Source: Nemertoderma westbladi (lineage: Eukaryota; Animalia; Xenacoelomorpha). Taken from it: a stretch of 64,000 nucleotides of DNA. Where the stretch lies: contig JAUCBJ010002409.1 of assembly GCA_032718475.1 (NCBI GenBank), positions 15,613-79,612 on the forward strand, given 5' to 3'. The translations under genes were made by a program, and so were the position numbers. The stretch's first letter is position 1, and each line of letters opens with the position of its first letter. Shown piece after piece: positions 1-60,450 of the stretch. The notes under the pieces were generated by a model. That model was not told the DNA's origin and made no database searches. It worked only from the letters and a program-made list of their open reading frames with translations.

Positions 1-587
1 AAAAGTGAAGTAGAAAAGTAACGTAGAAAAGTAAAGTAGAAAAGTAAAGTGGAAAAGTAAAGTAGAAAAGTAAAGTGGAAAAGTAAAGTAGAAAAGTAAA
101 GTAGAAAAGTAAAGTAGAAAAGTAAAGTGGAAAAGTAAAGTAGAAAAGTAAAGTAGAAAAGTAAAGTAGAAAAGTAAAGTAGAAAAGAAAAGTAGAAAGG
201 TAAAGTAGAAAAGTGAAGTAGAAAAGTAAAGTAGAAAGGTAAAGTAGAAAAGTAAAGGAGAAAAGAAAAGTAGAAAAGTAAAGTGGAAAAGTGAAGTAGA
301 AAAGTAACGTAGAAAAGTAAAGTAGAAAAGTAAAGTGGAAAAGTAAAGTAGAAAAGTAAAGTGGAAAAGTAAAGTAGAAAAGTAAAGTAGAAAAGTATAG
401 TAGAAAAGTAAAGTAGAAAAGTAAAGTAGAAAAGTATAGTAGAAAAGTAAAGTAGAAAGGTAAAGTAGAAAAGTAAAGTAGAAAAGTATAGTAGAAAAGT
501 AAAGTAGAAAGGTAAAGTAGAAAAGTAAAGTAGAAAAGAAAAGTAGAAAAGTAAAGTGGAAAAGTAAAGTAGAAAAGTAAAGTAGAA
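1..587. repeat. 13-bp purine-rich tandem repeat (AAAAGTAAAGTAG)n, intronic, runs off the window start
   Basis: About 45 visible copies with few substitutions; ends about 70 nt before the dynein acceptor at 659-660. Confidence 0.95.
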
Positions 588-660
588 ATTACTAACCAAT
601 TAAATAAAGATTTCATCCAAATAAAAATACTCATATACGAGTTTTCCTTTCCTTGTGTAG

Positions 661-3542: not shown

Positions 3543-3781
3543 GTGAGTGTGAGCATCACGTGATCTCTATATTTATGTTATTACCATAACGACTGTTATT
3601 ACAAAATATAAACAGGTAAAACCTCTAGTGTTACATCCCACAAACTAACAAAAAACATAGAATCAGGACGTTAACGCCCAAAATATTGTTCAGCCACTGG
3701 GAGTCGAGGTTTTACTTGTTTATTTTATATAATATATACAATATGCCCCCCTGTTAGTCAGTATGTCGCATGCAACCTTTA

Positions 3782-3976
3782 TTTATGTTATAACCATAAC
3801 TACTTTTATGTTATTCCCATAGCGACTTTATGTTATTCCCATAACGACTTTATGTTATTCCCATACCGACTTTATGTTATTTCCATACCGACTTTATGTT
3901 ATTCCCATAACGACTTTATGTTATTCCCATAACGACTTTATGTTATTCCCATAGCGACTTTATGTTATTCCCATAG
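3782..3976 (+). repeat. 22-bp minisatellite (CGACTTTATGTTATTCCCATA[G/A/C]) whose last unit forms the 3' splice site
   Basis: About 9 copies; the final unit supplies the AG at 3975-3976. Confidence 0.92.
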
Positions 3977-5246: not shown

Positions 5247-5333
5247 TTGGACAAGAAAGGAAGGATGAACTCCCTAACAACGGTTCTCCTGCAGGAGGTC
5301 GATCGATTCAATAAACTGCTGGGCGTTATTAAG
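5247..5333 (+). CDS. DNAH6: Dynein heavy chain exon
   Basis: ttttag| ... |gtaagt; [29 protein letters not shown]. Confidence 0.92.
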
Positions 5334-5401
5334 GTAAGTAAAGTATCTGTGTTCATTAATGGATATTAATTATCATTTTATACGGGTATACCACCGTGTC
5401 G

Positions 5402-8400
5402 ACCACACGATCATCGGATGGTTTTACTTTCATTTCCGTTAGTGCCAAGCACACGATCGGAGGGTTTTACTTTCATTTCCGTTAGTGCCAACCACACGAT
5501 CGGAGGGTTTTACTTTCATTTCCTTTAGTGCCAACCACACGATCGGAGGGTTTTACTTTCATTTCCGTTAGTGCCAACCACACGATCGGAGGGTTTTACT
5601 TTCATTTCCGTTAGTGCCAACCACACGATCGGGGGGTTTTACTTTCATTTCCTTTAGTGCCAACCACACGATCGGAGGGTTTTACTTTCATTTCCGTTAG
5701 TGCCAACCACACGATCGGGGGGTTTTACTTTCATTTCCGTTAGTGTCAACCACACGATCGGGGGGTTTTACTTTCATTTCCTTTAGTACCAACCACACGA
5801 TCGGAGGGTTTTACTTTCATTTCCTTTAGTGCCAACCACACGATCGGAGGGTTTTACTTTCATTTCCTTTAGTACCAACCACACGATCGGAGGGTTTTAC
5901 TTTCATTTCCGTTAGTGCCAACCACACGATCGGAGGGTTTTACTTTCATTTCCTTTAGTGCCAACCACACGATCGGAGGGTTTTACTTTCATTTCCGTTA
6001 GTGCCAACCACACGATCGGAGGGTTTTACTTTCATTTCCGTTAGTGCCAACCACACGATCGGAGGGTTTTACTTTCATTTCCGTTAGTGCCAACCACACG
6101 ATCGGGGGGTTTTACTTTCATTTCCTTTAGTGCCAACCACACGATCGGAGGGTTTTACTTTCATTTCCGTTAGTGCCAACCACACGATCGGGGGGTTTTA
6201 CTTTCATTTCCGTTAGTGCCAACCACACGATCGGGGGGTTTTACTTTCATTTCCTTTAGTACCAACCACACGATCGGAGGGTTTTACTTTCATTTCCTTT
6301 AGTGCCAACCACACGATCGGGGGGTTTTACTTTCATTTCCGTTAGTGCCAATCACACGATCGGAGGGTTTTACTTTCATTTCCTTTAGTGCCAACCACAC
6401 GATCGGAGGGTTTTACTTTCATTTCCTTTAGTGCCAACCACACGATCGGAGGGTTTTACTTTCATTTCCGTTAGTGCCAATCACACGATCGGAGGGTTTT
6501 ACTTTCATTTCCTTTAGTGCCAACCACACGATCGGAGGGTTTTACTTTCATTTCCGTTAGTGCCAATCACACGATCGGAGGGTTTTACTTTCATTTCCTT
6601 TAGTGCCAACCACACGATCGGAGGGTTTTACTTTCATTTCCTTTAGTGCCAACCACACGATCGGAGGGTTTTACTTTCATTTCCTTTAGTGCCAACCACA
6701 CGATCGGAGGGTTTTACTTTCATTTCCTTTAGTGCCAACCACACGATCGGAGGGTTTTACTTTCATTTCCGTTAGTGCCAATCACACGATCGGAGGGTTT
6801 TACTTTCATTTCCTTTAGTGCCAACCACACGATCGGAGGGTTTTACTTTCATTTCCTTTAGTGCCAACCACACGATCGGAGGGTTTTACTTTCATTTCCT
6901 TTAGTGCCAACCACACGATCGGAGGGTTTTACTTTCATTTCATTTAGTGCCAACCACACGATCGGAGGGTTTTACTTTCATTTCATTTAGTGCCAACCAC
7001 ACGATCGGAGGGTTTTACTTTCATTTCCTTTAGTGCCAACCACACGATCGGAGGGTTTTACTTTCATTTCCTTTAGTGCCAACCACACGATCGGAGGGTT
7101 TTACTTTCATTTCCTTTAGTGCCAACCACACGATCGGAGGGTTTTACTTTCATTTCATTTAGTGCCAACCACACGATCGGAGGGTTTTACTTTCATTTCC
7201 TTTAGTGCCAACCACACGATCGGAGGGTTTTACTTTCATTTCCTTTAGTGCCAATCAGACGATCGGAGGGTTTTACTTTCATTTCCTTTAGTGCCAACCA
7301 CACGATCGGAGGGTTTTACTTTCATTTCCTTTAGTGCCAACCACACGATCGGAGGGTTTTACTTTCATTTCCGTTAGTGCCAATCACACGATCGGAGGGT
7401 TTTACTTTCATTTCCTTTAGTGCCAACCACACGATCGGAGGGTTTTACTTTCATTTCCGTTAGTGCCAATCACACGATCGGAGGGTTTTACTTTCATTTC
7501 CTTTAGTGCCAACCACACGATCGGAGGGTTTTACTTTCATTTCCTTTAGTGCCAACCACACGATCGGAGGGTTTTACTTTCATTTCCGTTAGTACCAACC
7601 ACACGATCGGAGGGTTTTACTTTCATTTCCTTTAGTGCCAACCACACGATCGGAGGGTTTTACTTTCATTTCCGTTAGTACCAACCACACGATCGGAGGG
7701 TTTTACTTTCATTTCCTTTAGTACCAACCACACGATCGGAGGGTTTTACTTTCATTTCCTTTAGTGCCAACCACACGATCGGAGGGTTTTACTTTCATTT
7801 CCTTTAGTGCCAACCACACGATCGGAGGGTTTTACTTTCATTTCCTTTAGTGCCAACCACACGATCGGAGGGTTTTACTTTCATTTCATTTAGTGCCAAC
7901 CACACGATCGGAGGGTTTTACTTTCATTTCCTTTAGTGCCAACCACACGATCGGAGGGTTTTACTTTCATTTCATTTAGTGCCAACCACACGATCGGAGG
8001 GTTTTACTTTCATTTCCTTTAGTGCCAACCACACGATCGGAGGGTTTTACTTTCATTTCCTTTAGTACCAATCACACGATCGGAGGGTTTTACTTTCATT
8101 TCCTTTAGTGCCAATCACACGATCGGAGGGTTTTACTTTCATTTCCTTTAGTGCCAACCACACGATCGGAGGGTTTTACTTTCATTTCCTTTAGTGCCAA
8201 CCACACGATCGGAGGGTTTTACTTTCATTTCCTTTAGTGCCAACCACACGATCGGAGGGTTTTACTTTCATTTCCTTTAGTGCCAACCACACGATCGGAG
8301 GGTTTTACTTTCATTTCCTTTAGTGCCAACCACACGATCGGAGGGTTTTACTTTCATTTCCTTTAGTGCCAACCACACGATCGGAGGGTTTTACTTTCAT

Positions 8401-11400
8401 TTCATTTAGTACCAACCACACGATCGGAGGGTTTTACTTTCATTTCCTTTAGTGCCAACCACACGATCGGAGGGTTTTACTTTCATTTCCTTTAGTGCCA
8501 ACCACACGATCGGAGGGTTTTACTTTCATTTCCTTTAGTGCCAACCACACGATCGGAGGGTTTTACTTTCATTTCCTTTAGTGCCAAGCACACGATCGGA
8601 GGGTTTTACTTTCATTTCCTTTAGTACCAACCACACGATCGGAGGGTTTTACTTTCATTTCCTTTAGTACCAACCACACGATCGGAGGGTTTTACTTTCA
8701 TTTCCTTTAGTACCAACCACACGATCGGAGGGTTTTAGTTTCATTTCCTTTAGTACCAACCACACGATCGGAGGGTTTTACTTTCATTTCCGTTAGTGCC
8801 AATCACACGATCGGAGGGTTTTACTTTCATTTCCTTTAGTGCCAACCACACGATCGGAGGGTTTTACTTTCATTTCCTTTAGTGCCAACCACACGATCGG
8901 AGGGTTTTACTTTCATTTCATTTAGTGCCAACCACACGATCGGAGGGTTTTACTTTCATTTCCTTTAGTGCCAACCACACGATCGGAGGGTTTTACTTTC
9001 ATTTCCGTTAGTGCCAATCACACGATCGGAGGGTTTTACTTTCATTTCCTTTAGTGCCAACCACACGATCGGAGGGTTTTACTTTCATTTCCTTTAGTAC
9101 CAACCACACGATCGGAGGGTTTTACTTTCATTTCCTTTAGTACCAACCACACGATCGGAGGGTTTTACTTTCATTTCCTTTAGTGCCAACCACACGATCG
9201 GAGGGTTTTACTTTCATTTCCTTTAGTACCAATCACACGATCGGAGGGTTTTACTTTCATTTCCTTTAGTGCCAACCACACGATCGGAGGGTTTTACTTT
9301 CATTTCCTTTAGTGCCAACCACACGATCGGAGGGTTTTACTTTCATTTCCTTTAGTGCCAACCACACGATCGGAGGGTTTTACTTTCATTTCCTTTAGTA
9401 CCAACCACACGATCGGAGGGTTTTACTTTCATTTCCTTTAGTGCCAACCACACGATCGGAGGGTTTTACTTTCATTTCCTTTAGTACCAACCACACGATC
9501 GGAGGGTTTTACTTTCATTTCCTTTAGTACCAACCACACGATCGGAGGGTTTTACTTTCATTTCCTTTAGTACCAACCACACGATCGGAGGGTTTTACTT
9601 TCATTTCCTTTAGTGCCAACCACACGATCGGAGGGTTTTACTTTCATTTCCTTTAGTACCAACCACACGATCGGAGGGTTTTACTTTCATTTCCTTTAGT
9701 ACCAACCACACGATCGGAGGGTTTTACTTTCATTTCCTTTAGTGCCAACCACACGATCGGAGGGTTTTACTTTCATTTCCTTTAGTACCAACCACACGAT
9801 CGGAGGGTTTTACTTTCATATCCTTTAGTGCCAACCACACGATCGGAGGGTTTTACTTTCATTTCCTTTAGTACCAACCACACGATCGGAGGGTTTTACT
9901 TTCATTTCCTTTAGTACCAACCACACGATCGGAGGGTTTTACTTTCATTTCCTTTAGTGCCAACCACACGATCGGAGGGTTTTACTTTCATTTCATTTAG
10001 TACCAACCACACGATCGGAGGGTTTTACTTTCATTTCCTTTAGTGCCAACCACACGATCGGAGGGTTTTACTTTCATTTCCTTTAGTACCAATCACACGA
10101 TCGGAGGGTTTTACTTTCATTTCATTTAGTACCAACCACACGATCGGAGGGTTTTACTTTCATTTCCTTTAGTGCCAACCACACGATCGGAGGGTTTTAC
10201 TTTCATTTCCTTTAGTACCAATCACACGATCGGAGGGTTTTACTTTCATTTCATTTAGTACCAACCACACGATCGGAGGGTTTTACTTTCATTTCCTTTA
10301 GTGCCAACCACACGATCGGAGGGTTTTACTTTCATTTCCTTTAGTACCAATCACACGATCGGAGGGTTTTACTTTCATTTCCTTTAGTGCCAATCACACG
10401 ATCGGAGGGTTTTACTTTCATTTCATTTAGTACCAACCACACGATCGGAGGGTTTTACTTTCATTTCCTTTAGTGCCAACCACACGATCGGAGGGTTTTA
10501 CTTTCATTTCCTTTAGTACCAATCACACGATCGGAGGGTTTTACTTTCATTTCCTTTAGTGCCAACCACACGATCGGAGGGTTTTACTTTCATTTCCTTT
10601 AGTGCCAACCACACGATCGGAGGGTTTTACTTTCATATCCTTTAGTGCCAACCACACGATCGGAGGGTTTTACTTTCATTTCCTTTAGTGCCAACCACAC
10701 GATCGGAGGGTTTTACTTTCATTTCCTTTAGTACCAACCACACGATCGGAGGGTTTTACTTTCATTTCCTTTAGTGCCAACCACACGATCGGAGGGTTTT
10801 ACTTTCATTTCCTTTAGTACCAACCACACGATCGGAGGGTTTTACTTTCATATCCTTTAGTGCCAACCACACGATCGGAGGGTTTTACTTTCATTTCCTT
10901 TAGTACCAACCACACGATCGGAGGGTTTTACTTTCATTTCCTTTAGTACCAACCACACGATCGGAGGGTTTTACTTTCATTTCCTTTAGTGCCAACCACA
11001 CGATCGGAGGGTTTTACTTTCATTTCATTTAGTACCAACCACACGATCGGAGGGTTTTACTTTCATTTCCTTTAGTGCCAACCACACGATCGGAGGGTTT
11101 TACTTTCATTTCCTTTAGTACCAATCACACGATCGGAGGGTTTTACTTTCATTTCATTTAGTACCAACCACACGATCGGAGGGTTTTACTTTCATTTCCT
11201 TTAGTGCCAACCACACGATCGGAGGGTTTTACTTTCATTTCCTTTAGTACCAATCACACGATCGGAGGGTTTTACTTTCATTTCCTTTAGTGCCAATCAC
11301 ACGATCGGAGGGTTTTACTTTCATTTCCTTTAGTGCCAACCACACGATCGGAGGGTTTTACTTTCATTTCCTTTAGTGCCAACCACACGATCGGAGGGTT

Positions 11401-14256
11401 TTACTTTCATTTCATTTAGTACCAACCACACGATCGGAGGGTTTTACTTTCATTTCCTTTAGTGCCAACCACACGATCGGAGGGTTTTACTTTCATTTCC
11501 TTTAGTACCAATCACACGATCGGAGGGTTTTACTTTCATTTCCTTTAGTGCCAACCACACGATCGGAGGGTTTTACTTTCATTTCATTTAGTACCAACCA
11601 CACGATCGGAGGGTTTTACTTTCATTTCCTTTAGTGCCAACCACACGATCGGAGGGTTTTACTTTCATATCCTTTAGTGCCAACCACACGATCGGAGGGT
11701 TTTACTTTCATTTCCTTTAGTGCCAACCACACGATCGGAGGGTTTTACTTTCATTTCCTTTAGTACCAACCACACGATCGGAGGGTTTTACTTTCATTTC
11801 CTTTAGTGCCAACCACACGATCGGAGGGTTTTACTTTCATTTCCTTTAGTACCAACCACACGATCGGAGGGTTTTACTTTCATATCCTTTAGTGCCAACC
11901 ACACGATCGGAGGGTTTTACTTTCATTTCCTTTAGTACCAACCACACGATCGGAGGGTTTTACTTTCATTTCCTTTAGTACCAACCACACGATCGGAGGG
12001 TTTTACTTTCATTTCCTTTAGTGCCAACCACACGATCGGAGGGTTTTACTTTCATATCCTTTAGTGCCAACCACACGATCGGAGGGTTTTACTTTCATTT
12101 CCTTTAGTACCAACCACACGATCGGAGGGTTTTACTTTCATTTCCTTTAGTGCCAACCACACGATCGGAGGGTTTTACTTTCATTTCCTTTAGTGCCAAC
12201 CACACGATCGGAGGGTTTTACTTTCATTTCCTTTAGTGCCAACCACACGATCGGAGGGTTTTACTTTCATTTCCTTTAGTACCAACCACACGATCGGAGG
12301 GTTTTACTTTCATTTCCTTTAGTGCCAACCACACGATCGGAGGGTTTTACTTTCATTTCCTTTAGTGCCAACCACACGATCGGAGGGTTTTACTTTCATT
12401 TCCTTTAGTACCAACCACACGATCGGAGGGTTTTACTTTCATTTCCTTTAGTACCAACCACACGATCGGAGGGTTTTACTTTCATTTCCGTTAGTACCAA
12501 CCACACGATCGGAGGGTTTTACTTTCATTTCCTTTAGTGCCAACCACACGATCGGAGGGTTTTACTTTCATTTCCTTTAGTGCCAACCACACGATCGGGG
12601 GGTTTTACTTTCATTTCCTTTAGTGCCAACCACACGATCGGAGGGTTTTACTTTCATTTCCGTTAGTGCCAACCACACGATCGGGGGGTTTTACTTTCAT
12701 TTCCTTTAGTGCCAACCACACGATCGGAGGGTTTTACTTTCATTTCCTTTAGTGCCAACCACACGATCGGAGGGTTTTACTTTCATTTCCTTTAGTACCA
12801 ACCACACGATCGGAGGGTTTTACTTTCATTTCCTTTAGTGCCAACCACACGATCGGAGGGTTTTACTTTCATTTCCTTTAGTGCCAACCACACGATCGGA
12901 GGGTTTTACTTTCATTTCCGTTAGTGCCAACCACACGATCGGAGGGTTTTACTTTCATTTCCTTTAGTGCCAACCACACGATCGGAGGGTTTTACTTTCA
13001 TTTCCTTTAGTACCAATCACACGATCGGAGGGTTTTACTTTCATTTCCGTTAGTGCCAATCACACGATCGGAGGGTTTTACTTTCATTTCCTTTAGTGCC
13101 AACCACACGATCGGAGGGTTTTACTTTCATTTCCGTTAGTGCCAACCACACGATCGGAGGGTTTTACTTTCATTTCCTTTAGTGCCAACCACACGATCGG
13201 AGGGTTTTACTTTCATTTCCTTTAGTGCCAACCACACGATCGGAGGGTTTTACTTTCATATCCTTTAGTGCCAACCACACGATCGGAGGGTTTTACTTTC
13301 ATTTCCTTTAGTACCAACCACACGATCGGAGGGTTTTACTTTCATTTCATTTAGTACCAACCACACGATCGGAGGGTTTTACTTTCATTTCCTTTAGTGC
13401 CAACCACACGATCGGAGGGTTTTACTTTCATTTCCTTTAGTGCCAACCACACGATCGGAGGGTTTTACTTTCATTTCCTTTAGTGCCAACCACACGATCG
13501 GGGGGTTTTACTTTCATTTCCGTTAGTGCCAATCACACGATCGGAGGGTTTTACTTTCATTTCCTTTAGTGCCAACCACACGATCGGGGGGTTTTACTTT
13601 CATTTCCGTTAGTGCCAACCACACGATCGGAGGGTTTTACTTACATTTCCTTTAGTGCCAACCACACGATCGGAGGGTTTTACTTTCATTTCCTTTAGTA
13701 CCAACCACACGATCGGAGGGTTTTACTTTCATTTCCTTTAGTACCAACCACACGATCGGAGGGTTTTACTTTCATTTCCTTTAGTACCAACCACACGATC
13801 GGAGGGTTTTACTTTCATTTCCGTTAGTGCCAACCACACGATCGGAGGGTTTTACTTTCATTTCCTTTAGTGCCAACCACACGATCGGAGGGTTTTACTT
13901 TCATTTCCTTTAGTACCAACCACACGATCGGAGGGTTTTACTTTCATTTCCTTTAGTGCCAACCACACGATCGGAGGGTTTTACTTTCATTTCCGTTAGT
14001 GCCAATCACACGATCGGAGGGTTTTACTTTCATTTCCTTTAGTGCCAACCACACGATCGGAGGGTTTTACTTTCATTTCCGTTAGTGCCAATCACACGAT
14101 CGGAGGGTTTTACTTTCATTTCCTTTAGTGCCAACCACACGATCGGAGGGTTTTACTTTCATTTCCGTTAGTGCCAATCACACGATCGGAGGGTTTTACT
14201 TTCATTTCCTTTAGTGCCAACCACACGATCGGAGGGTTTTACTTTCATTTCCGTTA
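5402..14256 (+). repeat. 43-bp intronic satellite (CCACACGATCGGAGGGTTTTACTTTCATTTCCTTTAGTGCCAA)n, about 206 copies
   Basis: Head-to-tail near-identical units that fill almost all of intron 5334-14264. Confidence 0.98.
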
Positions 14257-14264
14257 TATTTTAG

Positions 14265-14450
14265 ATTTCTTTAATAAATCTGCAAAAGGCAATTAAAGGT
14301 TTGGTTGTTATGGACGACAAACTGGAACTGATTTATGGTTGTTTCCTTAACAACCAAGTACCTGGCCAATGGGAGGACGTCGCCTATCCGTCATTGAAAC
14401 CGCTCGGTAGTTGGGTCAATGACCTTAGACTGCGAACACATTTTATTGAT
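14265..14450 (+). CDS. DNAH6: Dynein heavy chain exon
   Basis: ttttag| ... |gtgagt; [16 protein letters not shown]...LNNQVPGQW...[15 protein letters not shown]. Confidence 0.93.
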
Positions 14451-14779
14451 GTGAGTATTGGTTGAAATTATTATTATTGCTATTATATTATGGTGAGCGC
14501 ATATGGCTGCGTTGGACTGTTATGAGGTGATTGACGTCGTTGATGCGGTACCGGTAGCTTCTATACTAAATTAAGTATTTAACTTTCAGTTTTATGTTAT
14601 TATCAAGTTATTACCGATAGACTGCTGTCTACATGTCCAGACAGTGTACTGACGATTCCGACAAACATGTTCTTATGTTTGTTATCATGTTGCTTAGAAA
14701 CACTCGTGCAATAAATAAATATTTCCTCCCCAAAGTTATTTATCTATTCCTAATATTTATTCGGATTGTATTCTTGCAG

Positions 14780-15004
14780 CATTGGGTTCGCAATGGGGCC
14801 CCGAGGTCCTTCTGGCTGTCCGGTTTCTTCTTCCCTCAAGGGTTCCTTACCGGTACTCTTCAGAACTACGCCCGTTCCTATGACTACCCTATAGACCAAC
14901 TGAGTTTCATGTTCCGAGTTCTACCCCACTACAGAGACCAGAATGAGGTTGCTAAGCAACTATCAGAACTAAAGTTTGGCGAAGAAATGGAAATGGATAA
15001 AGAG
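14780..15004 (+). CDS. DNAH6: Dynein heavy chain exon
   Basis: ttgcag| ... |gttggt; [36 protein letters not shown]. Confidence 0.93.
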
Positions 15005-15473
15005 GTTGGTAGACGCCATCTAGCGTCAGTTTAGTGTAGGAAATAAATACTGGCACTATAATATTTCGCGCCGTAAAATATAACAATCACTTAAATATAA
15101 ACCAATACTAATTACTTATCTTGCCCATCTCAGAGTCCATGAACAGAATAAGTGGCCATGTATTAATTGCACACTTTTTATATATGTTTATTTTTACCAT
15201 AATTAATAATGTGCATTTTGTGACTTATTCGTGTATTTATTGTATGGTGTGCCCTACTGTCGGATAAAAAACTCCTAGATTAGTATTGAGTTACGTTATT
15301 TAACGTTGTATTTCAAGGCGACTTGAAAATAATGTTGTGTTTTATCTGTAAGATGGGTGGGTGCACTGGCTTCGTTTTAATTACTATAGGTAAGGCGAGC
15401 CTAGTGAGGGTTTAAAATAAATATAAGTAAATTGCCCAAAAAGACCGAGCGATACATTCCGATATCGTTTCAG

Positions 15474-15696
15474 ATTCCAAAGATTAAGGACGGAGTTTTA
15501 GTCCATGGTCTGTTTCTGGACGCGGCCCGATGGAATGACGTCACCAACCAGCTGAGTGACCCCCTGCCAGGCGAGATGAACCCAACCTTCCCGATGATGC
15601 ATATGGAACCCCAGATGAGTTTCCAGGTTCCAGAACGCGATTATATCTGTCCGTTGTATAAAACATCAGCACGAGCCGGGGTTCTATCTACTACCG
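15474..15696 (+). CDS. DNAH6: Dynein heavy chain penultimate coding exon
   Basis: tttcag| ... ACT ACC G|gtaagt; DGVLVHGLFLDAARW...YICPLYKTSARAGVLSTT. Confidence 0.93.
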
Positions 15697-18600
15697 GTAA
15701 GTTTATTTAACACGAGCCGGGGTTCTATCTACCGGTAAGTTTATTTAACACGAGCCGGGGTTCTATCTACCGGTAAGTTTATTTAACACGAGCCGGGGTT
15801 CTATCTACCGGTAAGTTTATTTAACACGAGCCGGGGTTCTATCTACTACCGGTAAGTTTATTTAACACGAGTCGGGGTTCTATCTACTACCGGTAAGTTT
15901 ATTTAACACGAGCCGGGGTTCTATCTACTACCGGTAAGTTTATTTAACACGAGCCGGGGTTCTATCTACCGGTAAGTTAATTTAACACGAGTCGGGGTTC
16001 TATCTACCGGTAAGTTTATTTAACACGAGTCGGGGTTCTATCTACTACCGGTAAGTTTATTTAACACGAGTCGGGGTTCTATCTACTACCGGTAAGTTTA
16101 TTTAACACGAGCCGGGGTTCTATCTACCGGTAAGTTTATTTAACACGAGCCGGGGTTCTATCTACCGGTAAGTTTATTTAACACGAGCCGGGGTTCTATC
16201 TACCGGTAAGTTTATTTAACACGAGCCGGGGTTCTATCTACCGGTAAGTTTATTTAACACGAGCCGGGGTTCTATCTACTACCGGTAAGTTTATTTAACA
16301 CGAGCCGGGGTTCTATCTACCGGTAAGTTTATTTAACACGAGCCGGGGTTCTATCTACCGGTAAGTTTATTTAACACGAGCCGGGGTTCTATCTACCGGT
16401 AAGTTTATTTAACACGAGCCGGGGTTCTATCTACCGGTAAGTTTATTTAACACGAGCCGGGGTTCTATCTACCGGTAAGTTTATTTAACACGAGCCGGGG
16501 TTCTATCTACTACCGGTAAGTTTATTTAACACGAGCCGGGGTTCTATCTACTACCGGTAAGTTTATTTAACACGAGTCGGGGTTCTATCTACCGGTAAGT
16601 TTATTTAACACGAGCCGGGGTTCTATCTACTACCGGTAAGTTTATTTAACACGAGCCGGGGTTCTATCTACTACCGGTAAGTTTATTTAACACGAGTCGG
16701 GGTTCTATCTACTACCGGTAAGTTTATTTAACACGAGTCGGGGTTCTATCTACTACCGGTAAGTTTATTTAACACGAGCCGGGGTTCTATCTACCGGTAA
16801 GTTTATTTAACACGAGCCGGGGTTCTATCTACCGGTAAGTTTATTTAACACGAGTCGGGGTTCTATCTACCGGTAAGTTTATTTAACACGAGCCGGGGTT
16901 CTATCTACTACCGGTAAGTTTATTTAACACGAGCCGGGGTTCTATCTACTACCGGTAAGTTTATTTAACACGAGTCGGGGTTCTATCTACTACCGGTAAG
17001 TTTATTTAACACGAGTCGGGGTTCTATCTACTACCGGTAAGTTTATTTAACACGAGTCGGGGTTCTATCTACTACCGGTAAGTTTATTTAACACGAGCCG
17101 GGGTTCTATCTACTACCGGTAAGTTTATTTAACACGAGTCGGGGTTCTATCTACTACCGGTAAGTTTATTTAACACGAGTCGGGGTTCTATCTACTACCG
17201 GTAAGTTTATTTAACACGAGTCGGGGTTCTATCTACTACCGGTAAGTTTATTTAACACGAGTCGGGGTTCTATCTACTACCGGTAAGTTTATTTAACACG
17301 AGCCGGGGTTCTATCTACTACCGGTAAGTTTATTTAACACGAGCCGGGGTTCTATCTACCGGTAAGTTTATTTAACACGAGTCGGGGTTCTATCTCTACC
17401 GGTAAGTTTATTTAACACGAGCCGGGGTTCTATCTACCGGTAAGTTTATTTAACACGAGCCGGGGTTCTATCTACTACCGGTAAGTTTATTTAACACGAG
17501 CCGGGGTTCTATCTACTACCGGTAAGTTTATTTAACACGAGTCGGGGTTCTATCTACCGGTAAGTTTATTTAACACGAGCCGGGGTTCTATCTACCGGTA
17601 AGTTTATTTAACACGAGCCGGGGTTCTATCTACTACCGGTAAGTTTATTTAACACGAGCCGGGGTTCTATCTACTACCGGTAAGTTTATTTAACACGAGT
17701 CGGGGTTCTATCTACTACCGGTAAGTTTATTTAACACGAGCCGGGGTTCTATCTACCGGTAAGTTTATTTAACACGAGCCGGGGTTCTATCTACTACCGG
17801 TAAGTTTATTTAACACGAGCCGGGGTTCTATCTACTACCGGTAAGTTTATTTAACACGAGCCGGGGTTCTATCTACTACCGGTAAGTTTATTTAACACGA
17901 GCCGGGGTTCTATCTACTACCGGTAAGTTTATTTAACACGAGCCGGGGTTCTATCTACTACCGGTAAGTTTATTTAACACGAGCCGGGGTTCTATCTACT
18001 ACCGGTAAGTTTATTTAACACGAGCCGGGGTTCTATCTACTACCGGTAAGTTTATTTAACACGAGTCGGGGTTCTATCTACTACCGGTAAGTTTATTTAA
18101 CACGAGCCGGGGTTCTATCTACTACCGGTAAGTTTATTTAACACGAGCCGGGGTTCTATCTACTACCGGTAAGTTTATTTAACACGAGCCGGGGTTCTAT
18201 CTACTACCGGTAAGTTTATTTAACACGAGCCGGGGTTCTATCTACCGGTAAGTTTATTTAACACGAGCCGGGGTTCTATCTACCGGTAAGTTTATTTAAC
18301 ACGAGTCGGGGTTCTATCTACCGGTAAGTTTATTTAACACGAGCCGGGGTTCTATCTACTACCGGTAAGTTTATTTAACACGAGCCGGGGTTCTATCTAC
18401 CGGTAAGTTTATTTAACACGAGCCGGGGTTCTATCTACCGGTAAGTTTATTTAACACGAGCCGGGGTTCTATCTACTACCGGTAAGTTTATTTAACACGA
18501 GCCGGGGTTCTATCTACTACCGGTAAGTTTATTTAACACGAGCCGGGGTTCTATCTACTACCGGTAAGTTTATTTAACACGAGTCGGGGTTCTATCTACC

Positions 18601-21600
18601 GGTAAGTTTATTTAACACGAGCCGGGGTTCTATCTACTACCGGTAAGTTTATTTAACACGAGCCGGGGTTCTATCTACCGGTAAGTTTATTTAACACGAG
18701 CCGGGGTTCTATCTACTACCGGTAAGTTTATTTAACACGAGTCGGGGTTCTATCTACCGGTAAGTTTATTTAACACGAGCCGGGGTTCTATCTACTACCG
18801 GTAAGTTTATTTAACACGAGCCGGGGTTCTATCTACTACCGGTAAGTTTATTTAACACGAGTCGGGGTTCTATCTACCGGTAAGTTTATTTAACACGAGC
18901 CGGGGTTCTATCTACCGGTAAGTTTATTTAACACGAGCCGGGGTTCTATCTACTACCGGTAAGTTTATTTAACACGAGCCGGGGTTCTATCTACCGGTAA
19001 GTTTATTTAACACGAGTCGGGGTTCTATCTACTACCGGTAAGTTTATTTAACACGAGCCGGGGTTCTATCTACTACCGGTAAGTTTATTTAACACGAGTC
19101 GGGGTTCTATCTACCGGTAAGTTTATTTAACACGAGCCGGGGTTCTATCTACCGGTAAGTTTATTTAACACGAGTCGGGGTTCTATCTACTACCGGTAAG
19201 TTTATTTAACACGAGCCGGGGTTCTATCTACTACCGGTAAGTTTATTTAACACGAGCCGGGGTTCTATCTACTACCGGTAAGTTTATTTAACACGAGCCG
19301 GGGTTCTATCTACTACCGGTAAGTTTATTTAACACGAGCCGGGGTTCTATCTACTACCGGTAAGTTTATTTAACACGAGTCGGGGTTCTATCTACTACCG
19401 GTAAGTTTATTTAACACGAGCCGGGGTTCTATCTACTACCGGTAAGTTTATTTAACACGAGTCGGGGTTCTATCTACCGGTAAGTTTATTTAACACGAGC
19501 CGGGGTTCTATCTACTACCGGTAAGTTTATTTAACACGAGCCGGGGTTCTATCTACTACCGGTAAGTTTATTTAACACGAGCCGGGGTTCTATCTACTAC
19601 CGGTAAGTTTATTTAACACGAGCCGGGGTTCTATCTACTACCGGTAAGTTTATTTAACACGAGCCGGGGTTCTATCTACTACCGGTAAGTTTATTTAACA
19701 CGAGCCGGGGTTCTATCTACTACCGGTAAGTTTATTTAACACGAGCCGGGGTTCTATCTACTACCGGTAAGTTTATTTAACACGAGTCGGGGTTCTATCT
19801 ACTACCGGTAAGTTTATTTAACACGAGCCGGGGTTCTATCTACTACCGGTAAGTTTATTTAACACGAGTCGGGGTTCTATCTACCGGTAAGTTTATTTAA
19901 CACGAGCCGGGGTTCTATCTACCGGTAAGTTTATTTAACACGAGCCGGGGTTCTATCTACCGGTAAGTTTATTTAACACGAGTCGGGGTTCTATCTACTA
20001 CCGGTAAGTTTATTTAACACGAGCCGGGGTTCTATCTACTACCGGTAAGTTTATTTAACACGAGCCGGGGTTCTATCTACTACCGGTAAGTTTATTTAAC
20101 ACGAGCCGGGGTTCTATCTACTACCGGTAAGTTTATTTAACACGAGCCGGGGTTCTATCTACTACCGGTAAGTTTATTTAACACGAGCCGGGGTTCTATC
20201 TACTACCGGTAAGTTTATTTAACACGAGCCGGGGTTCTATCTACTACCGGTAAGTTTATTTAACACGAGCCGGGGTTCTATCTACTACCGGTAAGTTTAT
20301 TTAACACGAGCCGGGGTTCTATCTACTACCGGTAAGTTTATTTAACACGAGCCGGGGTTCTATCTACTACCGGTAAGTTTATTTAACACGAGCCGGGGTT
20401 CTATCTACTACCGGTAAGTTTATTTAACACGAGCCGGGGTTCTATCTACTACCGGTAAGTTTATTTAACACGAGCCGGGGTTCTATCTACTACCGGTAAG
20501 TTTATTTAACACGAGCCGGGGTTCTATCTACTACCGGTAAGTTTATTTAACACGAGTCGGGGTTCTATCTACTACCGGTAAGTTTATTTAACACGAGCCG
20601 GGGTTCTATCTACTACCGGTAAGTTTATTTAACACGAGCCGGGGTTCTATCTACCGGTAAGTTTATTTAACACGAGCCGGGGTTCTATCTACCGGTAAGT
20701 TTATTTAACACGAGCCGGGGTTCTATCTACTACCGGTAAGTTTATTTAACACGAGCCGGGGTTCTATCTACTACCGGTAAGTTTATTTAACACGAGCCGG
20801 GGTTCTATCTACTACCGGTAAGTTTATTTAACACGAGCCGGGGTTCTATCTACCGGTAAGTTTATTTAACACGAGCCGGGGTTCTATCTACTACCGGTAA
20901 GTTTATTTAACACGAGCCGGGGTTCTATCTACTACCGGTAAGTTTATTTAACACGAGCCGGGGTTCTATCTACTACCGGTAAGTTTATTTAACACGAGCC
21001 GGGGTTCTATCTACTACCGGTAAGTTTATTTAACACGAGCCGGGGTTCTATCTCTACCGGTAAGTTTATTTAACACGAGCCGGGGTTCTATCTACTACCG
21101 GTAAGTTTATTTAACACGAGCCGGGGTTCTATCTACTACCGGTAAGTTTATTTAACACGAGCCGGGGTTCTATCTACTACCGGTAAGTTTATTTAACACG
21201 AGCCGGGGTTCTATCTACTACCGGTAAGTTTATTTAACACGAGCCGGGGTTCTATCTACTACCGGTAAGTTTATTTAACACGAGCCGGGGTTCTATCTAC
21301 TACCGGTAAGTTTATTTAACACGAGCCGGGGTTCTATCTACTACCGGTAAGTTTATTTAACACGAGCCGGGGTTCTATCTACTACCGGTAAGTTTATTTA
21401 ACACGAGCCGGGGTTCTATCTACTACCGGTAAGTTTATTTAACACGAGCCGGGGTTCTATCTACCGGTAAGTTTATTTAACACGAGCCGGGGTTCTATCT
21501 ACTACCGGTAAGTTTATTTAACACGAGCCGGGGTTCTATCTACTACCGGTAAGTTTATTTAACACGAGCCGGGGTTCTATCTACTACCGGTAAGTTTATT

Positions 21601-24600
21601 TAACACGAGCCGGGGTTCTATCTACCGGTAAGTTTATTTAACACGAGCCGGGGTTCTATCTACTACCGGTAAGTTTATTTAACACGAGCCGGGGTTCTAT
21701 CTACTACCGGTAAGTTTATTTAACACGAGCCGGGGTTCTATCTACTACCGGTAAGTTTATTTAACACGAGCCGGGGTTCTATCTACTACCGGTAAGTTTA
21801 TTTAACACGAGCCGGGGTTCTATCTACTACCGGTAAGTTTATTTAACACGAGCCGGGGTTCTATCTACTACCGGTAAGTTTATTTAACACGAGCCGGGGT
21901 TCTATCTACTACCGGTAAGTTTATTTAACACGAGCCGGGGTTCTATCTACTACCGGTAAGTTTATTTAACACGAGCCGGGGTTCTATCTACTACCGGTAA
22001 GTTTATTTAACACGAGCCGGGGTTCTATCTACTACCGGTAAGTTTATTTAACACGAGCCGGGGTTCTATCTACTACCGGTAAGTTTATTTAACACGAGCC
22101 GGGGTTCTATCTACTACCGGTAAGTTTATTTAACACGAGCCGGGGTTCTATCTACTACCGGTAAGTTTATTTAACACGAGCCGGGGTTCTATCTACTACC
22201 GGTAAGTTTATTTAACACGAGCCGGGGTTCTATCTACTACCGGTAAGTTTATTTAACACGAGCCGGGGTTCTATCTACTACCGGTAAGTTTATTTAACAC
22301 GAGCCGGGGTTCTATCTACTACCGGTAAGTTTATTTAACACGAGCCGGGGTTCTATCTACTACCGGTAAGTTTATTTAACACGAGCCGGGGTTCTATCTA
22401 CTACCGGTAAGTTTATTTAACACGAGCCGGGGTTCTATCTACTACCGGTAAGTTTATTTAACACGAGCCGGGGTTCTATCTACTACCGGTAAGTTTATTT
22501 AACACGAGCCGGGGTTCTATCTACTACCGGTAAGTTTATTTAACACGAGCCGGGGTTCTATCTACTACCGGTAAGTTTATTTAACACGAGCCGGGGTTCT
22601 ATCTACTACCGGTAAGTTTATTTAACACGAGCCGGGGTTCTATCTACTACCGGTAAGTTTATTTAACACGAGCCGGGGTTCTATCTACTACCGGTAAGTT
22701 TATTTAACACGAGCCGGGGTTCTATCTACTACCGGTAAGTTTATTTAACACGAGCCGGGGTTCTATCTACTACCGGTAAGTTTATTTAACACGAGCCGGG
22801 GTTCTATCTACTACCGGTAAGTTTATTTAACACGAGCCGGGGTTCTATCTACTACCGGTAAGTTTATTTAACACGAGCCGGGGTTCTATCTACTACCGGT
22901 AAGTTTATTTAACACGAGCCGGGGTTCTATCTACCGGTAAGTTTATTTAACACGAGCCGGGGTTCTATCTACCGGTAAGTTTATTTAACACGAGCCGGGG
23001 TTCTATCTACCGGTAAGTTTATTTAACACGAGCCGGGGTTCTATCTACTACCGGTAAGTTTATTTAACACGAGCCGGGGTTCTATCTACTACCGGTAAGT
23101 TTATTTAACACGAGCCGGGGTTCTATCTACTACCGGTAAGTTTATTTAACACGAGCCGGGGTTCTATCTACTACCGGTAAGTTTATTTAACACGAGCCGG
23201 GGTTCTATCTACTACCGGTAAGTTTATTTAACACGAGCCGGGGTTCTATCTACTACCGGTAAGTTTATTTAACACGAGCCGGGGTTCTATCTACTACCGG
23301 TAAGTTTATTTAACACGAGCCGGGGTTCTATCTACTACCGGTAAGTTTATTTAACACGAGCCGGGGTTCTATCTACTACCGGTAAGTTTATTTAACACGA
23401 GCCGGGGTTCTATCTACTACCGGTAAGTTTATTTAACACGAGCCGGGGTTCTATCTACTACCGGTAAGTTTATTTAACACGAGCCGGGGTTCTATCTACT
23501 ACCGGTAAGTTTATTTAACACGAGCCGGGGTTCTATCTACTACCGGTAAGTTTATTTAACACGAGCCGGGGTTCTATCTACTACCGGTAAGTTTATTTAA
23601 CACGAGCCGGGGTTCTATCTACTACCGGTAAGTTTATTTAACACGAGCCGGGGTTCTATCTACTACCGGTAAGTTTATTTAACACGAGCCGGGGTTCTAT
23701 CTACCGGTAAGTTTATTTAACACGAGCCGGGGTTCTATCTACCGGTAAGTTTATTTAACACGAGCCGGGGTTCTATCTACTACCGGTAAGTTTATTTAAC
23801 ACGAGCCGGGGTTCTATCTACCGGTAAGTTTATTTAACACGAGCCGGGGTTCTATCTACTACCGGTAAGTTTATTTAACACGAGCCGGGGTTCTATCTAC
23901 TACCGGTAAGTTTATTTAACACGAGCCGGGGTTCTATCTACTACCGGTAAGTTTATTTAACACGAGCCGGGGTTCTATCTACCGGTAAGTTTATTTAACA
24001 CGAGCCGGGGTTCTATCTACTACCGGTAAGTTTATTTAACACGAGCCGGGGTTCTATCTACTACCGGTAAGTTTATTTAACACGAGCCGGGGTTCTATCT
24101 ACTACCGGTAAGTTTATTTAACACGAGCCGGGGTTCTATCTACTACCGGTAAGTTTATTTAACACGAGCCGGGGTTCTATCTACTACCGGTAAGTTTATT
24201 TAACACGAGCCGGGGTTCTATCTACCGGTAAGTTTATTTAACACGAGCCGGGGTTCTATCTACTACCGGTAAGTTTATTTAACACGAGCCGGGGTTCTAT
24301 CTACTACCGGTAAGTTTATTTAACACGAGCCGGGGTTCTATCTACTACCGGTAAGTTTATTTAACACGAGCCGGGGTTCTATCTACCGGTAAGTTTATTT
24401 AACACGAGCCGGGGTTCTATCTACTACCGGTAAGTTTATTTAACACGAGCCGGGGTTCTATCTACCGGTAAGTTTATTTAACACGAGCCGGGGTTCTATC
24501 TACTACCGGTAAGTTTATTTAACACGAGCCGGGGTTCTATCTACTACCGGTAAGTTTATTTAACACGAGCCGGGGTTCTATCTACCGGTAAGTTTATTTA

Positions 24601-27600
24601 ACACGAGCCGGGGTTCTATCTACTACCGGTAAGTTTATTTAACACGAGCCGGGGTTCTATCTACTACCGGTAAGTTTATTTAACACGAGCCGGGGTTCTA
24701 TCTACTACCGGTAAGTTTATTTAACACGAGCCGGGGTTCTATCTACTACCGGTAAGTTTATTTAACACGAGCCGGGGTTCTATCTACTACCGGTAAGTTT
24801 ATTTAACACGAGCCGGGGTTCTATCTACCGGTAAGTTTATTTAACACGAGCCGGGGTTCTATCTACTACCGGTAAGTTTATTTAACACGAGCCGGGGTTC
24901 TATCTACTACCGGTAAGTTTATTTAACACGAGCCGGGGTTCTATCTACTACCGGTAAGTTTATTTAACACGAGCCGGGGTTCTATCTACTACCGGTAAGT
25001 TTATTTAACACGAGCCGGGGTTCTATCTACTACCGGTAAGTTTATTTAACACGAGCCGGGGTTCTATCTACCGGTAAGTTTATTTAACACGAGCCGGGGT
25101 TCTATCTACTACCGGTAAGTTTATTTAACACGAGCCGGGGTTCTATCTACTACCGGTAAGTTTATTTAACACGAGCCGGGGTTCTATCTACTACCGGTAA
25201 GTTTATTTAACACGAGCCGGGGTTCTATCTACCGGTAAGTTTATTTAACACGAGCCGGGGTTCTATCTACTACCGGTAAGTTTATTTAACACGAGCCGGG
25301 GTTCTATCTACCGGTAAGTTTATTTAACACGAGCCGGGGTTCTATCTACTACCGGTAAGTTTATTTAACACGAGTCGGGGTTCTATCTACCGGTAAGTTT
25401 ATTTAACACGAGCCGGGGTTCTATCTACTACCGGTAAGTTTATTTAACACGAGCCGGGGTTCTATCTACTACCGGTAAGTTTATTTAACACGAGCCGGGG
25501 TTCTATCTACCGGTAAGTTTATTTAACACGAGCCGGGGTTCTATCTACCGGTAAGTTTATTTAACACGAGCCGGGGTTCTATCTACTACCGGTAAGTTTA
25601 TTTAACACGAGCCGGGGTTCTATCTACCGGTAAGTTTATTTAACACGAGCCGGGGTTCTATCTACTACCGGTAAGTTTATTTAACACGAGCCGGGGTTCT
25701 ATCTACTACCGGTAAGTTTATTTAACACGAGCCGGGGTTCTATCTACTACCGGTAAGTTTATTTAACACGAGCCGGGGTTCTATCTACCGGTAAGTTTAT
25801 TTAACACGAGCCGGGGTTCTATCTACTACCGGTAAGTTTATTTAACACGAGCCGGGGTTCTATCTACTACCGGTAAGTTTATTTAACACGAGCCGGGGTT
25901 CTATCTACTACCGGTAAGTTTATTTAACACGAGCCGGGGTTCTATCTACTACCGGTAAGTTTATTTAACACGAGCCGGGGTTCTATCTACTACCGGTAAG
26001 TTTATTTAACACGAGCCGGGGTTCTATCTACTACCGGTAAGTTTATTTAACACGAGCCGGGGTTCTATCTACTACCGGTAAGTTTATTTAACACGAGTCG
26101 GGGTTCTATCTACCGGTAAGTTTATTTAACACGAGCCGGGGTTCTATCTACCGGTAAGTTTATTTAACACGAGCCGGGGTTCTATCTACCGGTAAGTTTA
26201 TTTAACACGAGCCGGGGTTCTATCTACTACCGGTAAGTTTATTTAACACGAGCCGGGGTTCTATCTACCGGTAAGTTTATTTAACACGAGCCGGGGTTCT
26301 ATCTACTACCGGTAAGTTTATTTAACACGAGCCGGGGTTCTATCTACTACCGGTAAGTTTATTTAACACGAGCCGGGGTTCTATCTACCGGTAAGTTTAT
26401 TTAACACGAGCCGGGGTTCTATCTACTACCGGTAAGTTTATTTAACACGAGCCGGGGTTCTATCTACTACCGGTAAGTTTATTTAACACGAGCCGGGGTT
26501 CTATCTACTACCGGTAAGTTTATTTAACACGAGCCGGGGTTCTATCTACCGGTAAGTTTATTTAACACGAGCCGGGGTTCTATCTACTACCGGTAAGTTT
26601 ATTTAACACGAGCCGGGGTTCTATCTACTACCGGTAAGTTTATTTAACACGAGCCGGGGTTCTATCTACTACCGGTAAGTTTATTTAACACGAGCCGGGG
26701 TTCTATCTACTACCGGTAAGTTTATTTAACACGAGCCGGGGTTCTATCTACTACCGGTAAGTTTATTTAACACGAGCCGGGGTTCTATCTACCGGTAAGT
26801 TTATTTAACACGAGCCGGGGTTCTATCTACTACCGGTAAGTTTATTTAACACGAGCCGGGGTTCTATCTACTACCGGTAAGTTTATTTAACACGAGCCGG
26901 GGTTCTATCTACTACCGGTAAGTTTATTTAACACGAGCCGGGGTTCTATCTACCGGTAAGTTTATTTAACACGAGCCGGGGTTCTATCTACTACCGGTAA
27001 GTTTATTTAACACGAGCCGGGGTTCTATCTACTACCGGTAAGTTTATTTAACACGAGCCGGGGTTCTATCTACTACCGGTAAGTTTATTTAACACGAGCC
27101 GGGGTTCTATCTACTACCGGTAAGTTTATTTAACACGAGCCGGGGTTCTATCTACTACCGGTAAGTTTATTTAACACGAGCCGGGGTTCTATCTACCGGT
27201 AAGTTTATTTAACACGAGCCGGGGTTCTATCTACTACCGGTAAGTTTATTTAACACGAGTCGGGGTTCTATCTACTACCGGTAAGTTTATTTAACACGAG
27301 CCGGGGTTCTATCTACTACCGGTAAGTTTATTTAACACGAGCCGGGGTTCTATCTACCGGTAAGTTTATTTAACACGAGCCGGGGTTCTATCTACTACCG
27401 GTAAGTTTATTTAACACGAGCCGGGGTTCTATCTACCGGTAAGTTTATTTAACACGAGCCGGGGTTCTATCTACTACCGGTAAGTTTATTTAACACGAGC
27501 CGGGGTTCTATCTACCGGTAAGTTTATTTAACACGAGCCGGGGTTCTATCTACTACCGGTAAGTTTATTTAACACGAGCCGGGGTTCTATCTACTACCGA

Positions 27601-28724
27601 TAAGTTTATTTAACACGAGCCGGGGTTCTATCTACCGGTAAGTTTATTTAACACGAGCCGGGGTTCTATCTACTACCGGTAAGTTTATTTAACACGAGCC
27701 GGGGTTCTATCTACTACCGGTAAGTTTATTTAACACGAGCCGGGGTTCTATCTACTACCGGTAAGTTTATTTAACACGAGCCGGGGTTCTATCTACTACC
27801 GGTAAGTTTATTTAACACGAGCCGGGGTTCTATCTACTACCGGTAAGTTTATTTAACACGAGCCGGGGTTCTATCTACTACCGGTAAGTTTATTTAACAC
27901 GAGCCGGGGTTCTATCTACCGGTAAGTTTATTTAACACGAGCCGGGGTTCTATCTACTACCGGTAAGTTTATTTAACACGAGCCGGGGTTCTATCTACTA
28001 CCGGTAAGTTTATTTAACACGAGCCGGGGTTCTATCTACTACCGGTAAGTTTATTTAACACGAGCCGGGGTTCTATCTACTACCGGTAAGTTTATTTAAC
28101 ACGAGCCGGGGTTCTATCTACTACCGGTAAGTTTATTTAACACGAGCCGGGTTCTATCTACTACCGGTAAGTTTATTTAACACGAGCCGGGGTTCTATCT
28201 ACCGGTAAGTTTATTTAACACGAGCCGGGGTTCTATCTACTACCGGTAAGTTTATTTAACACGAGCCGGGGTTATATCTACTACCGGTAAGTTTATTTAA
28301 CACGAGTCGGGGTTCTATCTACCGGTAAGTTTATTTAACACGAGCCGGGGTTCTATCTACTACCGGTAAGTTTATTTAACACGAGTCGGGGTTCTATCTA
28401 CTACCGGTAAGTTTATTTAACACGAGTCGGGGTTCTATCTACTACCGGTAAGTTTATTTAACACGAGTCGGGGTTCTATCTACCGGTAAGTTTATTTAAC
28501 ACGAGCCGGGGTTCTATCTACTACCGGTAAGTTTATTTAACACGAGTCGGGGTTCTATCTACTACCGGTAAGTTAATTTAACACGAGTCGGGGTTCTATC
28601 TACTACCGGTAAGTTTATTTAACATGAGTCGGGGTTCTATCTACCGGTAAGTTTATTTAACACGAGCCGGGGTTCTATCTACTACCGGTAAGTTTATTTA
28701 ACACGAGCCGGGGTTCTATCTACT
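15670..28724 (+). repeat. 41/38-bp satellite (CACGAGCCGGGGTTCTATCTAC[TAC]CGGTAAGTTTATTTAA)n, roughly 325 copies, starting inside the exon
   Basis: The first unit is the last 27 nt of exon 15474-15696 plus 14 nt of intron; the array ends 20 nt before the next exon. Confidence 0.98.
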
Positions 28725-28744
28725 TCCCATTTGGTATTTTGTAG

Positions 28745-28848
28745 GTCATTCAACTAATTTCGTTGTGGCTTCACACTTGCCGACAGATACCCCTAGTGAC
28801 TATTGGATATCCATGGGAACTGCGTTGCTATGTCAACTTAATGAGTAG
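28745..28848 (+). CDS. DNAH6: Dynein heavy chain terminal coding exon
   Basis: ttttgtag|GT CAT... completes [34 protein letters not shown], the dynein C-terminus with a DNAH6-like ending; AATAAA at 28963. Confidence 0.93.
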
Positions 28849-30183
28849 CCAATTAGACGCCAACACAAGTCGTGAAGAATTTTGAATTGAATGACATCAT
28901 AGGTTAACCCCCCATCCAATCCAGTATTTGTGCCAGTAAAACTGTAACGAATTCGAAGTTTAAATAAAATATTAATAACTTTACTATAAAACAATCACCC
29001 ATTGTAAATAGACCCCCCCCCCCCCCCCCCCCACCCCCTTGCTAACATCAATTGTTGTACAGTTTTTATTATCGAATTTATTGTGTATATATATTTTGTA
29101 TATATAAAACATCTAGGTGTACAGATATTATCGTATTGTATATACATTTTGTATGTAGAGCCTTCCTTGTACGTATAGTTTTTTCAGTATTTAATACTTA
29201 TATACATAACAATCATATTGTACAGTTTTTTTTAATTATCTTGTTAAATATACTTTTTAAATTTTTTAACTTTTTAAGTATACTTTAGTAAATGCATTAA
29301 TTATATGATTATTAAAACTGAACCGTCCAATCTATCGATTGTTGTAACTTTAATTCATATTATACCGGGTAAATGTTGAAAAACAAATTATTAAACATTT
29401 GAGTTTTCAACCTATCTAGGCCTATTACATTTAATACATCCCTTAAAAATAGATAAATTGACTATCAGGTCTTTATTTTTCAATAATTTGTTAGAACCCT
29501 CCTAAACTTCCAGCTACATTTTATTTTTATAAAATTCTGCACACAATTTACAGAAAAATACTTAGTGTTTACCTTGAAATCCGTCACATCTGCGTTCTCT
29601 ATCCTGACAGACAAACAAAGGACAGTTATATGAAGCTTATAAACGATATGCAGACTACCACGACTGCCTACTGTTATTACGAACAAAAACTAAAAGTAAC
29701 ATGTTGGTTAATGCCAACCATATTTATTGCCCAAGTCACGTACCGGACTAAAAATATACAAAAATGTAAATCATTAAAGAATGAATGGTGGGATGGCTTT
29801 GATTATTTGATTGCCGAATACACAATAATCGGTCCCCTCCCGCTGCGATACACTCCAACCACAGTTTGTTATAGAAAAAGCTACAACGAATTTTGAAAAA
29901 AAACGTCACATACTCACATATGGGATAAATTTCAAATTTTCTTATTGTAATTAAGGGCTCATTTTGGCCATTTAAATTACAATAGGGTTGGTGCGCGAAA
30001 AAATTGTTGGGCTAGAAACAATCGAATAAGGGGTAACAAGGTGCCCTGAATCGGAGTGGCGGGGTGTGTTTTTTTGTAAAAACACGAGGAAAGGGTCGAA
30101 ATGACGGGTTTAAGTAAGCCCAGGAAGCTAATTTTGAAAATCGGCTGTGATTGGCTGCTACATATTAATGTCACTACGCTGTG

Positions 30184-55409: not shown

Positions 55410-55410
55410 G

Positions 55411-58768
<3,358 letters not shown>

Positions 58769-59410: not shown

Positions 59411-59424
59411 GTCTAGGTCTCTCA

Positions 59425-60450
<1,026 letters not shown>

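Follow-up and report, generated by a model that had tools for sequence, protein, structure and literature searches.

An exon–intron boundary minisatellite of unusual size in the last intron of a DNAH6-type dynein gene

Introduction

Tandem arrays that reiterate a 5′ splice site directly behind the authentic one have been described in several human genes. In intron 7 (IVS7) of human F7, minigene experiments showed that a 37-bp VNTR carries functional pseudo-donors but that splicing proceeds solely from the working donor lying furthest upstream (PMC1557585, Borensztajn et al. 2006). The accessible text of the same report names further human cases, namely CBS IVS13 with 15-20 repeats, 6-16 with 25 pseudo-sites, lamin B2 with 10-15 and PDGF with 16-18, and describes use of nearby pseudo-donors as well in CBS and 6-16 (PMC1557585). 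In lancelets, copies of exon-intron boundaries at 5′ and 3′ borders have been named 'mirages'; as reported, they are unstable in length and spliced normally, and in amphioxus they occur in Adh3 and in the globin genes BflGb6 and BflGb9 (PMC3087553).

Repeat-filled introns are also known from Drosophila. Its kl-3 and kl-5 genes encode axonemal dyneins. Giant introns filled with satellite DNA have been reported for both (PMC6508621, PMC11207136). A further report deals, in its accessible text, with motifs of up to 20 bp and is not directly relevant to the 41-nt unit considered here (PMC10078293). Our literature search, which reached few subscription journals, found no array with hundreds of donors.

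Here we analyse a window of 64,000 nucleotides from Nemertoderma westbladi, in which the last intron of a DNAH6-type dynein gene houses an array of donor sites. A sequence-only reading had presented this locus as a new puzzle. That status does not hold up beside the experimental dissection of human F7 (PMC1557585) and the 'mirages' already named in lancelets (PMC3087553). We conclude that the donor array is an exon–intron-boundary minisatellite of the F7 or 'mirage' type, which is to say a known kind at an unusual size, with no new mechanism.

Results

The analysis drew on four of six sequencing runs. The DNA runs X1, X2 and X3 represent two samples, X2 and X3 being from one. Run X4 is labelled 'DNA?' and was treated here as RNA because its contig covers exons alone and has GT..AG joints. 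The elements of the donor-array intron and its neighbouring exons are as follows.

14265-14450 and 14780-15004, plus strand: two upstream exons, covered by the X4 contig and matching Pfam Dynein_C.
15474..15696, plus strand: second-to-last exon, 223 nt; Pfam Dynein_C, E 1.2e-19; covered by the spliced X4 contig; unit 1 takes its exonic part from the final 27 nt.
15670..28724, plus strand: donor array; 324 full 41/38-nt units and a 23-nt partial unit, with 323 identical donors.
15697..15702, plus strand: donor 1, used; the X4 contig exits here and resumes with the sequence of 28747-28776.
28688..28744, plus strand: last decoy donor to acceptor, a possible 57-nt mini-intron unseen in RNA (no X4 contig on array units).
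28697..28702, plus strand: best branch-point-like match (predicted), inside the repeat, its A 43 nt before the acceptor.
28725..28744, plus strand: non-repeat 3′ end of the intron, 20 nt, with the YAG acceptor; an X1 DNA contig covers 28695-29002.
28745..29002, plus strand: last exon (stop 28846-28848) and 3′ UTR up to the end of the X4 contig match; Pfam Dynein_C positions 281-309.

Tandem Repeats Finder reports a period of 41, 324.6 copies and 96% matches over 15670-28724, in agreement with the earlier estimate of about 325 copies beginning at 15670 within a 13-kb intron. Each unit joins 27 nt of exon end to 14 nt of intron start. Unit 1 occupies 15670-15710 and the exon ends at 15696, so that the first unit straddles the exon-intron border. 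The majority 41-nt unit is present in identical form in 211 of the 324 full units, 83 are 38-nt units in which one CTA is absent, and a C>T change is carried by 42 (13%). GTAAGT occurs 323 times in the array, each time directly after CCG, from the first site at 15697 to the last at 28688; it is thus kept in 323 of 324 full units, and the GT is gone from one. Units with the C>T change number 18, 12, 2, 0, 2 and 8 in successive blocks of 54 units (33% in the first block), a clustering with p 0.003 to which an assembly effect may contribute. Their presence at both ends and absence from the centre is as expected from turnover that spares array ends, a pattern described for the lancelet arrays (PMC3087553).

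The intron spans 15697-28744 and is 13,048 nt long, of which the array makes up 99.8%. As the sequence-only reading had stated, the 20 nt at 28725-28744 are its sole non-repeat part, and a motif scan likewise places the best predicted branch-point match inside the last units: the last 80 nt of the intron contain one match to yUnAy, TTAAC at 28698. Throughout the 13,048 nt there is a single YAG, the true acceptor, and no AGGT. Recursive splicing of a long intron was considered and rejected on these two counts. RNA folding that might mask the decoys gave z values of -1.33 at the border and -1.56 within the array, neither of them significant.

A 12-exon model over 661-28848 encodes 654 residues up to a single stop, with GT-AG at 11 of 11 introns. 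Pfam Dynein_C and AAA_lid_11 are matched by five of five exons tested (the four exons examined near the array match Dynein_C), the closest solved-structure match is DNAH6 (E 1.6e-22), and a protein search with one exon returned a top match that is 75% identical. In silico, splicing from donor 1 gives a protein continuing ...STTGHSTNF...LCQLNE to its stop. Donors 2, 3, 4, 101 and 323 all end it at ...STTGKFI, so the claim that any donor but the first brings in an in-frame stop was borne out for the five of five decoys tested in silico. The stop lies 24 nt before the junction in the donor 2 product and at least 62 nt before it from donor 3 onward. In mammals, decay follows a 50-nt rule; products of donor 3 onward are likely degraded, with donor 2 as the exception.

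Splicing of this intron is documented by one X4 contig of 1,838 nt at depth 27, with GT..AG joints at 14450>14780 and 15002>15472 (+2). Past 15698 the contig runs on into the last exon, and before 14263 into exon 5247-5333. Contig position 1804 falls at window position 29002, the value predicted for a 15696>28745 junction with zero extra units; the contig is unbroken over this junction, and X4 depth on array-only bins is 0. The single spliced contig therefore bears out the joining of donor 1 to 28745, from which it also follows that the dynein gene is expressed. The possibility of a dead gene, which the sequence-only reading had entertained, falls with a transcript contig that reaches 28745. 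In stable RNA, both array-filled introns of the gene are removed at exon-adjacent sites, as observed in one contig from one sample; contigs lose rare forms, and this one does not give the array length of the X4 animal itself. RNA decay could conceal mis-splicing, which places donor choice at the splicing step beyond contig data.

The second array-filled intron lies upstream in the same gene, where further arrays are also found.

5413..14256, plus strand: sister array, 43 nt x 206, 8.8 kb; fills the intron 5334-14264 (8,931 nt) and ends 8 nt before the intron end.
3782..3975, plus strand: 22-nt x 9 array that extends into the acceptor at 3976 (Tandem Repeats Finder).
1..588, plus strand: 13-nt x 45 array, clipped by the window start and lying in another dynein intron (Tandem Repeats Finder).

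The sister array, two introns upstream of the donor array, consists of acceptor-like units, each a pyrimidine tract followed by TTAG, and contains 206 TTAG sites. It is spliced out in X4, a loose end of which matches exon 5247-5333. Use of its first TTAG would give a 109-nt intron; X4 uses the exon-adjacent acceptor instead. The distance from branch-like A to AG is 16 nt in the sister-array decoys versus 23 nt at the real acceptor, and this shorter spacing is a second possible reason for their silence. Because its units mimic an acceptor without exon sequence, the sister array is no mirage in the strict sense. Four introns of the dynein gene thus carry arrays, with units unrelated to each other. 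The arrays in three introns besides that of the donor array point to a local tendency to expand repeats. Three of the four touch a splice site, an unexplained feature of a small sample. A lone copy similar to the 22-nt array was noticed near 3571-3594.

Evidence from the DNA runs bears on whether the donor array exists and on how long it is. Depth on the array unit in X1, X2 and X3 is in the hundreds to thousands, compared with 4-34 on unique sequence, and X1 contigs both enter the array (14223-15699) and exit it (28695-29002). These run contigs were matched to the array flanks with one to two units, and no piece spans the array. No other flanks were found in X1 among six contigs per comparison, and a single entry and exit contig fits one locus. 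Since array depth is seen in three runs and both ends are recovered in X1, the array is real and no pure artefact. The objection that a short intron had been inflated by assembly is thereby answered as regards the existence of the array, while the exact length of 324 units is taken from the assembly.

As to that length, depth in X1 is 1657-2110 for contigs made of the majority 41-nt unit and 20-34 on the flanks. This would translate into about 48-106 copies, compared with 211-242 such words in the window, contig depth not being a copy number. With the same proviso, a word of the 43-nt sister array at depth 5500 would give 160-275 copies where the window has 168, in rough agreement with the assembled copy number. 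Contigs with a one-letter variant make up 34% in X2 (164/477) and in X3 (142/412), versus C>T units at 13% in the whole window array and 33% in its first 54 units; the variant letter is presumably the C>T change. X2 and X3 show near-equal array depth although their flank depths differ about fourfold or more within one sample, and neither covers the last exon, where they are uninformative. Depth and variant share hint at shorter alleles without a homogeneous centre, or at an over-long assembly.

The same intron position was compared in 56 related metagenome loci, with lengths taken by pattern match and orthology assumed. GT is present there in 14 loci, 38 read through without an intron, and the motif is missing in 4. 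The 13 measurable introns, representing about six distinct sequences, are 52-887 nt long with a median of 101, and no arrays were found in them. A GT at the same position in 14 of 56 loci, together with short introns, argues for an intron that is old and normally short and that did not arise from the repeat. With its array reduced to a single partial unit, the intron would measure 57 nt, within the 52-887 nt range. The array likely began when a short piece of the exon end was duplicated into the intron, and expanded afterwards. Birth of the intron itself by tandem duplication, as in the Rogers model, was rejected in view of the old position (14/56), the non-repeat acceptor and the lack of AGGT. 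The question of a dispersed satellite or mobile element, with its unit at several loci, is addressed by the single entry and exit contigs of X1 and by an exact search for the array unit in metagenome contigs, which gave 0 matches. An alignment of 15 sequences proved too variable to serve as a search query.

Discussion

The donor array agrees with the F7 and 'mirage' arrays in having a border-spanning unit, a reiterated splice signal, use of the upstream donor, and a homogenised centre with varied ends. As in F7, the first unit lies over the exon-intron border and the most upstream donor is used, with identical sites behind it. The differences are of degree and of evidence: there are 323 donors here against 5-25 in the human cases, the array makes up nearly the whole intron (99.8%) and supplies the predicted branch point, and the exonic part of the unit is 27 of 41 nt as opposed to 4 of 37 in F7. 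F7 is moreover backed by minigene work, whereas the present locus is known from sequence and one RNA contig. With the amphioxus mirages, as far as their report describes them, it shares tandem boundary copies with splice signals, normal splicing, effects at 5′ and 3′ boundaries, and less homogenised ends; BflGb6 has 3-6 units (PMC3087553) and the present array hundreds. The introns of kl-3 and kl-5 resemble those described here in being repeat-filled, transcribed and spliced out of dynein genes, but by published accounts they hold megabases of simple satellite, in contrast to the present 13 kb built from a splice-site unit of local origin. Intron gigantism of the Drosophila type, at hundreds of kb to Mb, was considered and set aside, the introns here being 13.0 and 8.9 kb.

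We propose that a 41-base stretch over the exon-intron border was repeated about 324 times, probably through replication slippage or unequal exchange. The second-to-last exon would then be defined by its upstream acceptor together with the closest donor, with the result that donor 1 is chosen, and the array would be tolerated, unstable repeat DNA with no function of its own, in effect a very large 'mirage' minisatellite. We put the probability of this reading as a whole, with a slippage origin, first-donor use and no function of the array, at roughly 0.8. The array is likely harmless; it is probably neutral and probably varies in length between animals. Use of the exon-nearest site on both sides of the three-exon block fits exon definition, and since the donor array contains no internal YAG, its decoys cannot delimit exons of their own. 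Exon definition or first-come selection, as suggested earlier, has the best support as the means by which the first donor is picked.

Several alternatives deserve weighing, of which one concerns scale. The array may be real yet shorter in the animal than assembled, or the window may hold an unusually long allele. The low copy estimate for the majority unit from X1 depth and the excess of variant contigs in X2 and X3 speak for this, but contig depth is no copy number, the X2 and X3 depths are inconsistent within one sample, X1 possibly comes from another animal than the assembly, and the variant units follow one another irregularly over 13 kb, which looks read and not padded. We regard a shorter array as a tentative possibility and lean against it; because it alters the scale and not the kind, it is compatible with a tolerated repeat. 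A different alternative assigns the array an effect, in that each decoy would turn a minor fraction of transcripts into truncated or degraded ones and a longer allele would yield less full-length dynein. The early stop from every decoy tested, the donor 2 stop placed just 24 nt before the junction, the depth hints of length differences between samples and the use of nearby pseudo-donors in CBS and 6-16 (PMC1557585) are all in keeping with such a dial. Against it, no X4 contig lies on array units and the spliced contig is unbroken at the junction, the reported F7 pseudo-donors did not compete (PMC1557585), the loss of GT from one unit gives no sign that decoys are protected, and any leak is more simply a cost than a device. 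We therefore consider a length-dependent dial unlikely. A broader version holds that axonemal dynein introns in this animal grow by amplifying their own splice signals and that the polymorphic arrays, with more than 300 decoy donors behind and about 200 decoy acceptors ahead of the three-exon block, set the amount of full-length dynein through such a leak. It appears to us quite improbable; array length would then be an inherited control on the dynein of cilia or sperm, and would mark the beginnings of intron gigantism of the fly type.

Two further proposals would give the bulk of the array a purpose. As a sink for U1 snRNP, the nascent array could draw on 323 sites, each agreeing with the U1-pairing consensus at 9 of 11 positions, which equals the best of 11 donors scored in the gene. 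Mammalian nuclei contain roughly a million U1 particles. One locus with few nascent transcripts would present at most thousands of sites, and set beside that figure this argues against a sink, as do the lack of any X4 contig containing the intron and a sense strand without AATAAA or ATTAAA that would need U1 protection; we find the idea scarcely credible. The arrays might instead lengthen the gene so as to time or pace transcription, as an early form of the giant introns of Drosophila Y dynein genes. All three arrays over 500 nt in the window do sit in dynein introns, two of them adding about 22 kb, and satellite-filled introns are on record for kl-3 and kl-5 (PMC6508621), but 13 kb is far under the megabase scale of the fly genes and related loci hold this intron at 52-887 nt, which makes pacing very unlikely. 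No evidence was found for either of the two roles that the sequence-only reading had raised, a U1 snRNP sink and a length-tunable control. The explanation as a tolerated minisatellite is thus the one we retain.

The array is larger than the published cases cited, which reach up to 25 copies. If its length holds, first-donor selection extends from 5-25 copies in mammals to more than 300 identical donors spread over 13 kb in another animal, the last of which would allow a mini-intron of 57 nt. The pairing of a donor array with an acceptor-like array in one gene amounts to a natural test of exon versus intron definition, and variable alleles would let the cost per decoy site be measured.

Other features of the window

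The minus strand of 15697-28744 contains 322 AATAAA hexamers and the plus strand none; a convergent gene lies downstream, and the hexamers are probably incidental. Among the related dynein loci, L010, L011, L021 and L048 have in-frame stops under the standard code and are possibly from ciliates with a changed code. On the minus strand, 36037-60450 holds a kinase gene with few very large exons, whose motifs suggest that it is MAP4K4/misshapen-like. Its kinase-domain exon is present twice in full and in near-identical form, at 57752-58768 and 59422-60450, and tandem repeats in the reading frames of the gene at 38032-38279 (30-nt unit) and 39801-40096 (21-nt unit) give 10- and 7-residue protein repeats. 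Large transposon-like open frames of 979 and 633 aa occupy 42705-47927 on the minus strand; about 700 nt are directly duplicated inside this region, near 44.3-45.7 kb. Fragments that by eye resemble LINE reverse transcriptase occur at 30706-31326 and 54704-55441, with related short pieces near 2700-2900.
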